In this document: positions 18,031 to 22,309 of the stretch, piece by piece
How positions within the stretch are numbered: position 1 is the first letter of the stretch
Layout of the letters: every line of letters begins with the position of its first letter
Virus record (IMG/VR): IMGVR_UViG_2541047798_000002
Reading direction: 5' to 3' (one strand)
DNA from: a virus
Taxonomy: Duplodnaviria; Heunggongvirae; Uroviricota; Caudoviricetes
Length of the DNA: 40,694 nt
Translations under genes and position numbers: made by a program
The notes under the pieces: generated by a model
What the model was told of the DNA's origin: nothing
Database searches by the model: none
Seen by the model: the letters and a program-made list of their open reading frames with translations, nothing else

Positions 18031-18490
18031 TCAACGTAAGGCGTTCCTCGATATGCTGGCGTGGTCAGAGGGAACTGATAACGGACGTCAGAAAACCAGA
18101 AATCATGGTTATGACGTCATTGTAGGAGGAGAGCTATTCACTGATTACTCCGATCACCCTCGCAAACTTGTCACGCTAAACCCAAAGCTCAAATCAACAG
18201 CCGCCGGACGTTACCAGCTTCTTTCACGTTGGTGGGATGCCTACCGCAAGCAACTTGGCCTGAAAGACTTCTCTCCCAAAAGCCAGGACGCAGTGGCATT
18301 GCAGCAGATTAAAGAGCGTGGCGCTTTACCGATGATTGATCGCGGTGATATTCGTCAGGCTATCGACCGTTGCAGCAATATCTGGGCTTCACTGCCTGGC
18401 GCTGGTTATGGTCAGTTCGAGCATAAGGCTGACAGCCTGATTGCAAAATTCAAAGAAGCAGGCGGAACGGTCAGAGAGATTGAGGTATGA
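18014..18490 (+). CDS. R: Endolysin (lambda R-like lytic transglycosylase)
   Basis: 158-aa ORF matching lambda R as recalled ([39 protein letters not shown]...). Confidence 0.9.
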
Positions 18491-18963
18491 GCAGAGTCAC
18501 CGCGATTATCTCCGCTCTGATTATCTGCATCGTCGTCTGTCTGTCATGGGCGGTCAATCATTACCGTGATAACGCCATCGCCTACAAAGAACAGCGGGAT
18601 AAAAAAGTCAGTGAGCTGAAGCAGGCGACCGCCACCATTACTGACATGCAGCAGCGCCAGCGTTCTGCTGATGCACTCGATGCTAAATACACGAAGGAGT
18701 TAGCTGATGCGAAAGCTGAAAATGATGCTCTTCTGCGGAAGCTTGATAATGGTGGCAGGGTGCTCGTCAAAGGAAAATGCCCTGTGCCATCCTCAGCCGA
18801 AACCTCCAGCGCCTCCAGCGCCTCCAGCATGGGCAATGATGCCACCGTCGAACTCTCTCCAGTTGCTGGACGAAACGTTCTCGGTATCCGGGACGGAATT
18901 ATCCGCGACCAAACAGCACTGAGAACGCTTCAGGAATATATCAGGACGCAATGCCTTCGATGA
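18487..18963 (+). CDS. Rz: Rz i-spanin
   Basis: 158-aa ORF with N-terminal TM segment and coiled-coil; N-terminus resembles lambda Rz; overlaps R stop. Confidence 0.8.
18707..18922 (+). CDS. Rz1: Rz1 o-spanin lipoprotein embedded in the +1 frame of Rz
   Basis: [21 protein letters not shown] lipobox followed by a proline-rich region ([14 protein letters not shown]); embedded architecture as in lambda. Confidence 0.7.
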
Positions 18964-19136
18964 TAGCGATAATTTTACTCATCATCCTTCACATCTGGCT
19001 CTGTAGACAGGGTGGTGATCACTTCTGGAGTGAATCCAGATTAAACATCTCATTGCTGATGCTTGATATTGAGCATCTGGCGCGCGGTAAGGGGCTGCGT
19101 TGAGATAAGAGTCAGTCATTACAAATACCAGGATTT

Positions 19137-19170
19137 AGCCTCGCATTCGCGGGGCTTTTTATTCCCAACT
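19137..19170 (+). terminator. Intrinsic terminator after lysis cassette
   Basis: gcctcgc-attc-gcggggc hairpin followed by TTTTTATT. Confidence 0.5.
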
Positions 19171-19184
19171 CTATAGGTAATTTT

Positions 19185-19664
19185 ATGACCCAGCATATTG
19201 GCGTAAAGCTGATTAACGCCTTTCCGATGACGAGACAGGCATATAACGATTTTCGTGGCTGGCAGCTTCCTGCCGGAGAAAACGGCGAGGACGAAGGCTA
19301 TCTGGTTGAATATCTGGATGGCGGAAAACCTAACACCGATCGCTTTGATGGCTACGTTAGCTGGAGTCCAAAAGAAGTATTCGAAAAGGCTTATCGTCCG
19401 GTATCAGGGCTAAGTTTCGGCCTTGCCATGGAAGCGTTAAAACAGGGCAAAAGTTTGCAGCGGGCAGGATGGAATGGGAAAGACCAGTTTGTTTATCTCG
19501 TGAAAGGGGAAAAATTAGCGTCTGCGTTGGGTTATGGCTTTGGCGAATATGTTGGCGAGCCAACTTTCAATGACACGCTTGTATTGAAAAACTCACAGAA
19601 CCGCCTTGCTACATGGGTTCCATCCATTGGCGACCTGATGGCTGAAGACTGGCAAATCATTTAA
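19185..19664 (+). CDS. Hypothetical protein with DUF2829-like C-terminal domain
   Basis: 159-aa ORF; segment AMEALKQGKSLQRAGWNGKDQFVYL fits the A-x-EALK-x-GK...R-x-GWNGK signature I associate with DUF2829 phage proteins; weak SD. Confidence 0.45.
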   Translation: MTQHIGVKLINAFPMTRQAYNDFRGWQLPAGENGEDEGYLVEYLDGGKPNTDRFDGYVSWSPKEVFEKAYRPVSGLSFGLAMEALKQGKSLQRAGWNGKDQFVYLVKGEKLASALGYGFGEYVGEPTFNDTLVLKNSQNRLATWVPSIGDLMAEDWQII

Positions 19665-19901
19665 CCATGTAGGCATTACAAAGCCTATCTACGGGTGGGC
19701 TTGATAATGAAACCGGAGTTAATTTCTGGTCACTAATTAACGGCAGTACAGCGAAACAACCCAAGCCAGTAAGTGGGGAAATAACACTGGCAGCCACTGA
19801 AAGATGAACCTCCAGCCTTATGGCAAAAAAGATTCTTTGTGGTGGCGGACTGATGGAAAGACATCCGCTGAATCGATGATGAACAAGTGGAAGAGGTTGT
19901 G

Positions 19902-20072
19902 ATGGTTTCCGTGAACAAAGATCCGAAGGAAGGCGTTGAATACATCACTGGTGCTGATGGTGTGAAAAGGCCAATGGCTTATTACAAAGCGGCCGAAGAG
20001 AGGGCAAGAATGGAAAATCCCCCTAAATGCGGATCATTTTTCGACATGCTGGACCTTCAATGGAAGTTGTGA
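19902..20072 (+). CDS. Hypothetical small protein (56 aa)
   Basis: ATG with AAGAGG SD inside ORF-track ORF 19887..20072; followed by a terminator-like hairpin. Confidence 0.35.
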   Translation: MVSVNKDPKEGVEYITGADGVKRPMAYYKAAEERARMENPPKCGSFFDMLDLQWKL

Positions 20073-20082
20073 ACAACTAACA

Positions 20083-20108
20083 GGTCGCTCAGGCGGCCTT
20101 TTTTATTG
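20083..20108 (+). terminator. Intrinsic terminator-like hairpin + T-run
   Basis: ggtcgc-tcag-gcggcc followed by TTTTTTATT. Confidence 0.45.
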
Positions 20109-20211
20109 CCATCACAAAAGCCATTCCTTACTGAGTGGCTTTGATAATGGCTTATACCCTACACGGGATAACTTAACTGATATCCCTTTTAACGGATAAA
20201 CGGAGCCAACA

Positions 20212-20454
20212 ATGGCAGAGATTATTCCCATGACTGAAGAACAGAAATTCCAGTTAGAGATTTACAAACTGGTCATGAACCAGAACGCAGCCGCAGAAGA
20301 AGCATTTCAATTCATTGGAACTGACGAGCTGAAGCTTGAACTATTCAAAATTCACTTCCAGTCAGGCGGCGCTAATTCGGATATCACGATCCGCACATTT
20401 GAAGCGGTGCGTAAATCGAAGGAAGCGTTAGACCTGTTCACTACCGGAGCATAA
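20212..20454 (+). CDS. Hypothetical protein (80 aa) upstream of terminase
   Basis: ORF with SD (ACGGAG); ends 3 nt before terS start. Confidence 0.5.
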   Translation: MAEIIPMTEEQKFQLEIYKLVMNQNAAAEEAFQFIGTDELKLELFKIHFQSGGANSDITIRTFEAVRKSKEALDLFTTGA

Positions 20455-20456
20455 AC

Positions 20457-20897
20457 ATGGCGCGCCCAACAAAGTATCAAGAGGCGTACGCCGAACAGGC
20501 ACGCAAACTGTGCTTGCTGGGCTACACCGATGCAGAGCTTGCTGATTTCTTCGAAGTCAGTGAGTCAACTATTAACAAGTGGAAGCTTGATTATCCTGAG
20601 TTTTCGGAGTCCATAAAAAAGGGTAAGGCCGTCGCTGATGCAGAAGTTAGTGATCGTCTTTATCAACGCGCTATGGGCTTCGTGGCTCCAGATATCGATA
20701 TTCGTGTTATTGAAAACAGAATTGTCGAAACTCCGCTTGAGAAGTATTACCCGCCTGATACAACCGCTGCCATTTTCTGGCTTAAGAACCGACAGAAGGA
20801 TAAATGGCGCGACAAGGTTGATCACGAGCTAACAGGCAAAGACGGCGGCGCAATTCAGATTGAAACATCACCGATGAGCACTCTATTCGGAAAATGA
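20457..20897 (+). CDS. Terminase small subunit
   Basis: 146-aa ORF immediately upstream of and overlapping terL; HTH-like N-terminus (YTDAELADFFEVSESTINKWK). Confidence 0.7.
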   Translation: MARPTKYQEAYAEQARKLCLLGYTDAELADFFEVSESTINKWKLDYPEFSESIKKGKAVADAEVSDRLYQRAMGFVAPDIDIRVIENRIVETPLEKYYPPDTTAAIFWLKNRQKDKWRDKVDHELTGKDGGAIQIETSPMSTLFGK

Positions 20898-22309
20898 CCT
20901 CGATTAATCCTATCTTTGAACCGTTCATTGAGGCGCATCGCTACAAAGTTGCCAAAGGCGGTCGAGGTAGCGGTAAATCATGGGCAATTGCGAGGCTGCT
21001 TGTTGAAGCGGCGCGTCGGCAGCCTGTGCGCATACTCTGCGCTCGTGAACTGCAAAACAGTATCAGCGATTCGGTAATCCGGTTGCTTGAAGATACCATT
21101 GAGCGGGAAGGGTATTCGGCTGAGTTTGAAATTCAGCGTTCCATGATTCGTCATCTTGGAACGAATGCTGAATTCATGTTCTACGGCATCAAAAACAACC
21201 CGACGAAGATTAAATCGCTCGAAGGCATTGATATCTGCTGGGTGGAAGAAGCGGAAGCGGTAACGAAGGAATCATGGGATATCCTGATACCAACCATCCG
21301 TAAGCCATTTTCCGAAATATGGGTGAGCTTTAACCCAAAGAACATCCTCGACGATACCTATCAGCGATTCGTCGTAAATCCTCCCGATGATATTTGCCTG
21401 CTGACGGTGAACTACACCGACAACCCGCACTTTCCTGAAGTTCTCCGTCTGGAGATGGAAGAGTGCAAACGCAGAAATCCGACACTGTATCGTCACATCT
21501 GGCTTGGTGAGCCAGTAAGCGCAAGTGATATGGCAATCATCAAACGTGAATGGCTTGAAGCCGCAACCGATGCGCACAAGAAACTCGGATGGAAAGCGAA
21601 AGGCGCGGTTGTTTCTGCGCATGACCCATCAGATACAGGGCCGGATGCCAAAGGTTATGCATCGCGTCACGGTTCGGTAGTTAAGCGTATTGCCGAAGGT
21701 CTGCTGATGGACATCAACGAGGGCGCTGACTGGGCTACTTCGCTGGCGATTGAAGACGGCGCTGACCATTACCTGTGGGATGGTGATGGTGTTGGTGCCG
21801 GGCTACGCAGACAGACAACGGAAGCGTTCTCCGGCAAGAAAATCACCGCCACGATGTTCAAGGGCAGTGAATCGCCATTCGATGAAGATGCGCCGTATCA
21901 GGCCGGAGCATGGGCTGATGAAGTCGTACAGGGTGACAACGTTCGCACTATTGGCGATGTGTTCCGCAATAAGCGAGCACAATTCTATTACGCGCTGGCT
22001 GACAGGCTGTATCTGACATATCGGGCGGTTGTTCACGGTGAGTATGCAGACCCAGACGACATGCTGAGTTTCGACAAAGAAGCGATAGGCGAGAAGATGC
22101 TGGAGAAGCTGTTTGCAGAACTGACGCAGATTCAGCGCAAATTCAATAACAACGGGAAGCTGGAGCTTATGACTAAGGTCGAAATGAAGCAGAAGCTCGG
22201 TATTCCATCTCCTAACCTGGCTGATGCGTTGATGATGTGTATGCATTGTCCGGAGTCGGCTGCGCAACCCGACTATTCCAGTTACTCAATTCCTTGTGGT
22301 GTAGGTTGA
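20894..22309 (+). CDS. Terminase large subunit
   Basis: 471-aa ORF; Walker A KGGRGSGKS at N-terminus, Walker B-like ICWVEEAE, C-terminal nuclease region. Confidence 0.9.
   Translation: MTSINPIFEPFIEAHRYKVAKGGRGSGKSWAIARLLVEAARRQPVRILCARELQNSISDSVIRLLEDTIEREGYSAEFEIQRSMIRHLGTNAEFMFYGIKNNPTKIKSLEGIDICWVEEAEAVTKESWDILIPTIRKPFSEIWVSFNPKNILDDTYQRFVVNPPDDICLLTVNYTDNPHFPEVLRLEMEECKRRNPTLYRHIWLGEPVSASDMAIIKREWLEAATDAHKKLGWKAKGAVVSAHDPSDTGPDAKGYASRHGSVVKRIAEGLLMDINEGADWATSLAIEDGADHYLWDGDGVGAGLRRQTTEAFSGKKITATMFKGSESPFDEDAPYQAGAWADEVVQGDNVRTIGDVFRNKRAQFYYALADRLYLTYRAVVHGEYADPDDMLSFDKEAIGEKMLEKLFAELTQIQRKFNNNGKLELMTKVEMKQKLGIPSPNLADALMMCMHCPESAAQPDYSSYSIPCGVG

Follow-up and report, generated by a model that had tools for sequence, protein, structure and literature searches.

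In the 40,694-nucleotide (nt) viral record IMGVR_UViG_2541047798_000002 of IMG/VR, the whole of which is termed the window below, the gene at 19185..19664 encodes a protein of 159 amino acids (aa) composed of two distinct domains: a highly conserved N-terminal domain (ND) and a C-terminal domain of the Tad2 (DUF2829) family. The product is almost certainly a Tad2-type sponge for the alarm molecule of Thoeris immunity, and we consider it probable that the protein acts as a two-domain counter-defence factor, in which the sponge half is accompanied by an accessory ND. The window as a whole represents a P22-like E. coli podophage of the HK620/Sf6/CUS-3 type. A previous reading of the letters alone (the sequence-only reading) had noticed a DUF2829-like string in this open reading frame (ORF) and proposed a Tad2-type anti-defence factor; the string, AMEALKQGKSLQRAGWNGKDQFVYL, indeed occupies aa 81-105, and the proposal is supported by the profile match, the similarity to Tad2 of phage SPO1, the predicted fold and the ligand-contact residues. 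The Tad2 idea as such is not new, as a Tad2-like anti-defence role was already hypothesised in 2026 for Kapi1_043, the positional homologue in phage Kapi1 (PMC12922286). With close relatives predicted earlier, the gene is routine as a Tad2 homologue, and the parts worth following are the ND and the cassette organization of the locus.

HMMER search against the DUF2829/Tad2 profile gave a match to PF11195 well beyond chance (E = 6.4e-22; score 78.3 bits, cut-off 25), which spans aa 77-159 and profile positions 2-73 of 73. Among the sequences of the PDB, phmmer ranked SPO1 Tad2 first (8sme/8wje, E ~3e-26), followed by ModTad2 (E ~1e-18). The alignment with SPO1 Tad2 contains 41 identical residues over 85 (48%) and no gaps, the short β2-β3 insert included. 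HgmTad2/AcrIIA7 and SptTad2 are matched weakly, with E-values of 4e-6 to 4e-8, and the matches go no further than residue ~35 of the domain. Judged by sequence, the protein clearly belongs to the Tad2 family.

The AlphaFold2 (AF2) model of the full protein, built from 55 homologues, has a predicted local distance difference test (pLDDT) score of 90.9. In its Tad2 part the helices H78-86, H108-114 and H148-152 alternate with the strands E91-93, E102-106, E131-135, E141-143 and E156-158, matching the expected Tad2 fold of an N-terminal helix, an antiparallel β-sheet and short helices in the β2-β3 and β4-β5 loops. Structural comparison by Foldseek placed the model on 8smf/8sme/8wje with target-normalized template modelling scores (TMt) of 0.8-0.92 and E-values down to 1e-8, and the root-mean-square deviation on the SPO1 Tad2 chains is 1.1-3.5 Å; for the long-insert HgmTad2 and SptTad2 the TMt is ~0.62. 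These structural comparisons are made with predicted single-chain models.

In the complex of SPO1 Tad2 with glyco-cyclic ADP-ribose (gcADPR), W25 and W73 make van der Waals contacts and N26 and D79 polar contacts, whereas T78 hydrogen-bonds to the adenine, I63 and T65 contribute nonpolar contacts, and D67, H71 and S76 coordinate waters (Yirmiya et al.). The residues W25, N26, W73, S76 and D79 are retained in the window protein as W96, N97, W144, S147 and D150, all of which are invariant or at least 90% conserved among the 55 homologues. The core that grips ADP-ribose (ADPR) thus appears intact by alignment, and the adenine side appears to have drifted. The most likely ligand, as far as homology can tell, is 1''-3' gcADPR (3'cADPR) of type I Thoeris, because SPO1 Tad2 is by far the nearest relative, most Tad2 homologues assayed so far inhibit type I Thoeris, and the long insert is absent.

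The sequence-only reading had set the N-terminal ~75 aa apart as an uncharacterised region, and correctly so: aa 1-74 have no Pfam model. Pfam searches with the ND alone (E ≤ 10) and with a stand-alone member returned no family, and both phmmer against PDB sequences and Foldseek against the PDB found no solved structure that resembles it. Exhaustive profile search with the window ND collected 2,916 clusters at 50% identity, 1,400 of them at E ≤ 1e-10, which corrected a word-index search with the ND alone that had understated the family at 139 short proteins. The family ranges over phages of Proteobacteria, Bacteroides crAss-like phages and Clostridium. Among its 142 best-scoring representatives, 32 of the 74 positions are at least 85% identical, and the window protein keeps 32 out of 32. 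These positions include many polar and aromatic residues (K8, R17, Y20, N21, R24, W26, E32, D36, E42, Y43, D45, N50, Y57, S59, W60 and S61), and the domain is marked by the motifs PMTR..YN.FRGW.LP..E...DEGYLVEY.DGG..N and GY[VI]SWSPK..FE..Y, for which our literature search found no paper. The ND-only model (pLDDT 94.6) has three strands (residues 10-14, 38-43 and 57-62) and two helices. The segment expected to swap, residues 1-9, receives no DSSP assignment and is less confident in the full-length model (block mean pLDDT 74), which is compatible with a strand swap.

Homology search also related the ND to its N-terminal counterpart in RyR-Tad, gp68 of Pectobacterium phage vB_PatP_CB1 (BLASTP E = 7e-6; hhalign 96.6%, E = 4.7e-10). 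Of the 32 conserved positions, the gp68 N-domain retains only 15, which amount to little more than the hydrophobic core, and the polar cluster is gone. In the crystal structure of gp68 the N-domain forms a β1-swapped dimer, and both domains add to dimerization (10.64898/2026.06.04.730250). A dimerising scaffold is the best-supported function of the ND, as it is the only role with direct structural evidence.

Further analysis of the 142 representatives revealed what the ND is fused to. By Pfam, the partner is Tad2 in 50 proteins, Sequestin (PF21825) in 40, Acb4 (PF13876) in 15 and an Acb2/Tad1 hairpin in one, so that for ~75% of these diverse ND proteins the partner falls into one of the four sponge families that Pfam defines; with RyR-Tad, the partners comprise five sponge families in all. 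Local classification by jackhmmer was stricter (44 rather than 50 Tad2), and some of the partners it left unassigned are degenerate Tad2 domains or frameshifted fragments. Local domain mapping also found ND-RyR and chains of several sponges, namely Acb4-ND-Sequestin and ND-Sequestin-Tad2, and gp069 of Achromobacter phage Axy13 (1870-2568 of the compared stretch) is a triple fusion ND-Acb4-Sequestin; P0287 joins the ND to an Acb2/Tad1 hairpin. Sequestin itself was discovered through its fusions to Tad2 and Acb4 (Tal et al.). As the ND has no Pfam entry, it would have been invisible to a fusion screen based on Pfam. Our literature search found no paper describing the association of the ND with sponges across families, and the Panoptes and Acb4 papers mention neither N4 gp49 nor the ND.

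Several further ND proteins (for example P0254, P0273, P0328, P0331, P0342, P0361 and P0365) carry C- or N-terminal partners of 70-150 aa with no Pfam match, and those of P0254 and P0273 have DYAWxWHCNIAMAAFDAGCPH in common. It is possible that such unmatched partner domains are unknown sponges.

The same two-domain architecture occurs in phage N4, whose gp49 (EF056009 34003-34485) is an ND-Tad2 protein with 49% full-length identity to the window protein, the two NDs being 54% identical over aa 2-73. It follows gp48, an Acb4 protein (PF13876, E = 9e-35), beside the virion RNA polymerase (vRNAP) gene (gp48-gp49, 2109-2962 of the compared stretch), and this place next to vRNAP has been described as an "anti-signalling hotspot" of N4-like phages (10.64898/2026.06.04.730250). 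In Erwinia phage phiEaP8, a stand-alone ND gene of 78 aa (2468-2704 of the compared stretch) adjoins the vRNAP gene at the position of N4 gp49, with no recognisable sponge gene adjoining. The Pfam name "N4 Gp49" does not fit gp49 of EF056009, a naming trap that can make the ND look like Acb4. Assignment of the ND to Acb4 was indeed considered, on the strength of the label "N4_gp49/Sf6_gp66 family" of a crAssphage protein and a tblastn match to N4 "gp49", and was rejected, with no match to PF13876 for the whole protein (E ≤ 1) or for the ND alone (E ≤ 10). In the crAssphage protein, PF13876 covers aa 71-141, the C-terminal half that lies 3' of the ND, and crAssphage KP06_gp41 is a member of the ND family.

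Alignment of the window DNA with Kapi1, Huey and UMNK88 revealed that the locus is built from exchangeable parts. From the terminator through the ND to the start of the first Tad2 helix (~19430), the four sequences are ~98-99% identical, and identity resumes in the final ~20 nt of the ORF and continues into the DNA downstream. In between (~19430-19643), the Tad2 core is the same in UMNK88 but is replaced by unrelated DNA in Kapi1 and in Huey, each with its own indels. At least three Tad2 alleles stand behind a constant ND. The window allele is SPO1-like, and that of Kapi1 is closest to the His-ADPR binder ModTad2 as well as to the long-insert SptTad2 and HgmTad2. Kapi1_043, encoded at the same locus, is 70% identical overall to the window protein and has an identical ND over aa 1-75. 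The gene was found in 45 of 5,426 complete E. coli genomes, every copy chromosomal and annotated by PGAP as "DUF2829 domain-containing protein", and eight of the 45 share only its first ~260 nt. Phage HZ41 encodes an identical protein, and PHROG 872 matches the 159-aa protein over its full length (E = 1.9e-69).

A second slot lies downstream of the gene. In the window it contains a 61-aa ORF (phrog_5425), whereas in UMNK88, 55989 and Huey an anti-CBASS Acb4 gene (PF13876, "Gp49 family") stands between identical flanks, so that these sister prophages carry ND-Tad2 followed by Acb4. By position, the 61-aa ORF is a counter-defence candidate; it has a GTG start as listed, and its PHROG match begins at aa 9. 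Among the 36 phage records that match the gene interval, most do so only over the ~60-nt terminator, and other P22-like phages have Rha, HNH, KilA-N or other genes at the same site. With two slots of sharp boundaries and variable content, the region after the lysis genes behaves as a counter-defence and accessory hotspot, whose Tad2/Acb4 content parallels that of N4 gp48-gp49.

Regarding expression, a consensus scan of 18400-20600 found no sigma-70 promoter site on the plus strand, and in a relaxed search from Rz to the start codon (18880-19184) the best match was 8/12, non-consensus promoters being possible. The Shine-Dalgarno sequence is weak (AGGT, 8 nt 5' of the ATG). The G+C content of the gene (47.9%) is close to that of the window (47.5%), and hence gives no indication that the gene was acquired recently from elsewhere. 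Given the lack of a sigma-70-like promoter and the equal G+C content, readthrough within the late operon is the simplest inference, and the gene probably rides on the late transcript via antiterminated readthrough of the preceding hairpin. The label "moron-like" thus stands in part: the content of the locus is variable between collinear relatives and hairpins are present at 19137-19156 and 20082-20099, but no promoter of its own was found.

Altogether, we propose the following mode of action. Residues 75-159 would assemble, by homology, into a homotetramer, in which two inter-protomer pockets formed by W96/N97 and W144/S147/D150 may sequester the ADP-ribose-derived alarm molecule produced by the Thoeris TIR protein (ThsB). 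With the signal sequestered, the effector ThsA would never be switched on and the phage cycle could be completed. The ND is best pictured as a mobile module in its own right, found in company with several unrelated families of sponge; most likely it serves as a strand-swapped dimerization or scaffold unit by which the sponge oligomer is pre-organised or stabilised. The gene would be expressed from the late operon, where the Q-modified polymerase should read through the preceding terminator, and its locus is a two-slot cassette region, in which the sister prophages carry other Tad2 alleles and Acb4.

Several points weigh against this proposal, concerning in turn the ligand, the ND and the time of expression. 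Five of the ten ligand-environment residues of SPO1 Tad2 are changed (I63L, T65N, D67Q, H71A and T78G, corresponding to L134, N136, Q138, A142 and G149), among them the sole adenine hydrogen-bond donor, all five being adenine-side or water-network residues of SPO1 Tad2, so that the ligand preference could differ. Moreover, there are known Tad2 homologues for which the ligand is His-ADPR, N7-cADPR, cUMP/cCMP or cyclic dinucleotides, in place of 3'cADPR or alongside it. The same sponge might accordingly have as its main ligand His-ADPR (type II Thoeris), N7-cADPR (type IV), cUMP/cCMP (Pycsar) or a cyclic dinucleotide (CBASS), a reading we regard as unlikely. In its favor, each of these specificities is represented among Tad2 homologues, many of which block two or more systems, the H71A change is also found in ModTad2, and the Tad2 core is swapped among otherwise identical prophage genes, as expected for differing targets. 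However, the replaced positions also vary in functional Tad2 homologues and therefore bear on ligand preference rather than on family membership, the ADPR-gripping residues are intact, and SPO1 Tad2 is nearer than ModTad2 by a wide margin. SPO1-type Tad2 binds no cyclic nucleotides, and the 35-41 residue insert that builds the cyclic-dinucleotide pocket of HgmTad2 and SptTad2 is absent from the window protein, which has the short SPO1-type insert. An anti-CRISPR function like that ascribed to AcrIIA7 is hardly credible. AcrIIA7 has a DUF2829 domain, and homologue records carry the legacy label "anti-CRISPR protein" (as in phages Huey and Louie and Klebsiella phage phi1_146050) or read "Thoeris anti-defense 2-like protein". 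Yet AcrIIA7 (HgmTad2) has been shown to be a gcADPR/cyclic-dinucleotide sponge for which Cas9 binding was never demonstrated, its match to the window protein (E = 4e-6) is limited to the start of the domain, and the CRISPR-Cas systems of E. coli are of type I-E/I-F rather than type II-A.

As to the ND, Tad2, Acb4 and Sequestin oligomerise without it, which leaves no obvious need for a purely scaffolding role. The domain often stands alone in proteins of 73-78 aa, which, together with its conservation, points to an independent activity. The ND might bind or degrade a signal beyond those of the known sponges, as a new family of immune-signal sponge or degrading module in a dual inhibitor that, like the Acb4-Tad2 and Acb4-Sequestin fusions, would block a second signalling system and whose Tad2 half works as described, or it might shield sponges from sponge-sensing systems such as Panoptes. 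We hold this to be possible, if doubtful; the room for it comes from the independent occurrence of the ND, its extreme polar and aromatic conservation across distant phages, its presence at the place of gp49 in the N4-like hotspot and its inclusion in multi-sponge chains, and the guilt-by-fusion logic is that which uncovered Sequestin. On the other hand, the ND is acidic (pI 4.9), unlike the positively charged pockets of known nucleotide sponges, the one crystal structure assigns it a strand-swapped dimer interface, and no extra ligands were reported for full-length gp68. The gp68 fragment 1-86 was inactive against type I Thoeris (10.64898/2026.06.04.730250); since this N-domain has lost the polar cluster, its negative result may not apply to the canonical ND. 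Finally, Kapi1_043 shows the highest expression of all Kapi1 genes in lysogen cultures under all conditions, and the Kapi1 host is without Thoeris (PMC12922286). The gene might thus be a lysogeny-expressed moron that alters host physiology through binding of host nucleotides or maintains a sponge pool that protects prophage induction, which we consider quite improbable. The terminator ahead of the gene and the variable locus content would fit such a moron, but no sigma-70 promoter was found between Rz and the start codon, and strictly lytic N4-like phages have the two-domain protein, so that its function cannot depend on lysogeny. Scaffold and capsid reads are also high in the same RNA-seq data, for which reason the read count of Kapi1_043 may reflect a spontaneously induced subpopulation.

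Compared to SPO1 Tad2 (Gp34.65; PDB 8SME/8SMF/8SMG/8WJE), which it resembles in profile, identity, short insert, predicted fold and contact residues, the window protein adds the 74-aa ND to what is a single 89-aa domain in SPO1, and it belongs to a temperate podovirus of a Gram-negative host. The ND-Tad2 architecture is shared with N4 gp49, the PHROG 872 and N4-like "DUF2829" proteins, Kapi1_043 and Huey CDS0064, although in Kapi1 and Huey the Tad2 core is another allele, whose insert is longer and whose nearest relatives are ModTad2, SptTad2 and HgmTad2; in the searched literature, no biochemical test of any of these proteins was found. RyR-Tad likewise places an ND homologue ahead of a gcADPR sponge domain, with the shared ND core K8, PM, EGYLV.Y and Y.SWSP..F. 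It differs, however, in that the partner is an RyR domain (PF02026) instead of Tad2, that its ND lacks 17 of the 32 conserved positions (including R17, Y20, N21, R24, G25, W26, E32, E42, D45-G-G and N50), and that gp68 is dimeric, as opposed to the tetrameric Tad2. The double-sponge fusions Acb4-Tad2 (Pasteurella phage Pm86), Tad2-Sequestin and Acb4-Sequestin (Ab09 gp59) are also small proteins that join a Tad2-type sponge to a second compact domain, and the second domain likewise occurs alone and in other sponge fusions. In these fusions both halves are proven sponges, whereas the window ND is acidic and without Pfam model, and one divergent member was tested negative. With HgmTad2 (AcrIIA7) and SptTad2, the protein shares the DUF2829 core and the gcADPR-pocket motif W-N ... 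W..S..D, but not the long insert.

The gene adds one prophage-borne anti-Thoeris candidate of E. coli, present in less than 1% of complete genomes. The fusion signal of the ND is like that behind the discovery of Sequestin, and the domain could either be one more sponge family, the sixth or seventh, or offer sponges a general handle for oligomerization. If it has an activity of its own, it would represent a new and very widespread family of anti-defence modules, and the ND could also serve as a marker for unknown sponges, considering ~30 ND proteins with a partner that matches nothing. A constant ND with a variable Tad2 would then make a modular "plug-in" for retargeting phage counter-defence. 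The post-lysis region of P22-like phages offers a defined place to seek counter-defence genes in temperate enterobacterial phages, for example the phrog_5425 ORF.

Table 1. Features of the ND-Tad2 locus and its surroundings (window positions)
Feature	Positions	Strand	Description
Holin-sized ORF	17707-18030	+	Lysis cassette (17707..18963)
Endolysin-sized ORF	18014-18490	+	Lysis cassette
Rz	18487-18963	+	Pfam Phage_lysis, E = 1.2e-27
Rz1-like lipoprotein ORF	18707-18922	+	Embedded in Rz; from the ORF list
Intrinsic-terminator-like hairpin and U-tract	19137..19164 (stem-loop 19137-19156)	+	Closes the lysis cassette; conserved left junction of the variable locus
Complete ORF	19185..19664	+	159 aa plus stop, ATG start; two-domain ND and Tad2 protein
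N-terminal domain (ND), aa 1-74	19185..19406	+	Unnamed, highly conserved β/α module
Tad2 (DUF2829, PF11195) sponge domain, aa 75-159	19407..19661	+	SPO1 short-insert type; predicted contacts W96, N97, W144, S147, D150
Exchangeable allelic cassette (Tad2 core)	19430..19643	+	Delimited by comparison with the DNA of Kapi1, Huey and UMNK88
Second cassette slot	19865..20113	+	61-aa ORF 19887-20072 (phrog_5425) and terminator-like hairpin 20082-20099
DUF2560 gene	20212..20454	+	80 aa; PF10834, E = 2.6e-42; phrog_571; right-hand neighbour of the locus
Terminase small subunit	20457-20897	+	Downstream packaging gene
Terminase large subunit	20894-22309	+	Downstream packaging gene

The position of the gene agrees with the sequence-only reading, which had placed it downstream of a terminator and between the lysis and packaging genes (Table 1). 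The upstream hairpin has an 8 bp stem with six G-C pairs, followed by UUUUUAUU, and its folding energy of -16.4 kcal/mol (z = -3.6) was equalled by one of 200 shuffles. Its ~60 nt are kept in many lambdoid phages, including HK620, CUS-3, Sf6-like phages, epsilon34 and Ayreon, the last two of which have it annotated as "terminator". The terminator call is thus made from stability and conservation and not from a generic terminator scan, which yielded 2 sites versus 2.1 expected and was not above chance.

The lysis cassette is of lambda type, and in the collinear region of E. coli A3 it is annotated by PGAP as holin, GH24 and lysis protein. On the right-hand side, the DUF2560 gene lies directly 5' of the terminase small subunit in every P22-like prophage compared. 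On the left, a conserved hydrophobic ORF of 50 aa (18951-19103, phrog_11822) overlaps the end of Rz and stops just 5' of the terminator; for its homologue Kapi1_042, the annotation gives a predicted signal peptide.

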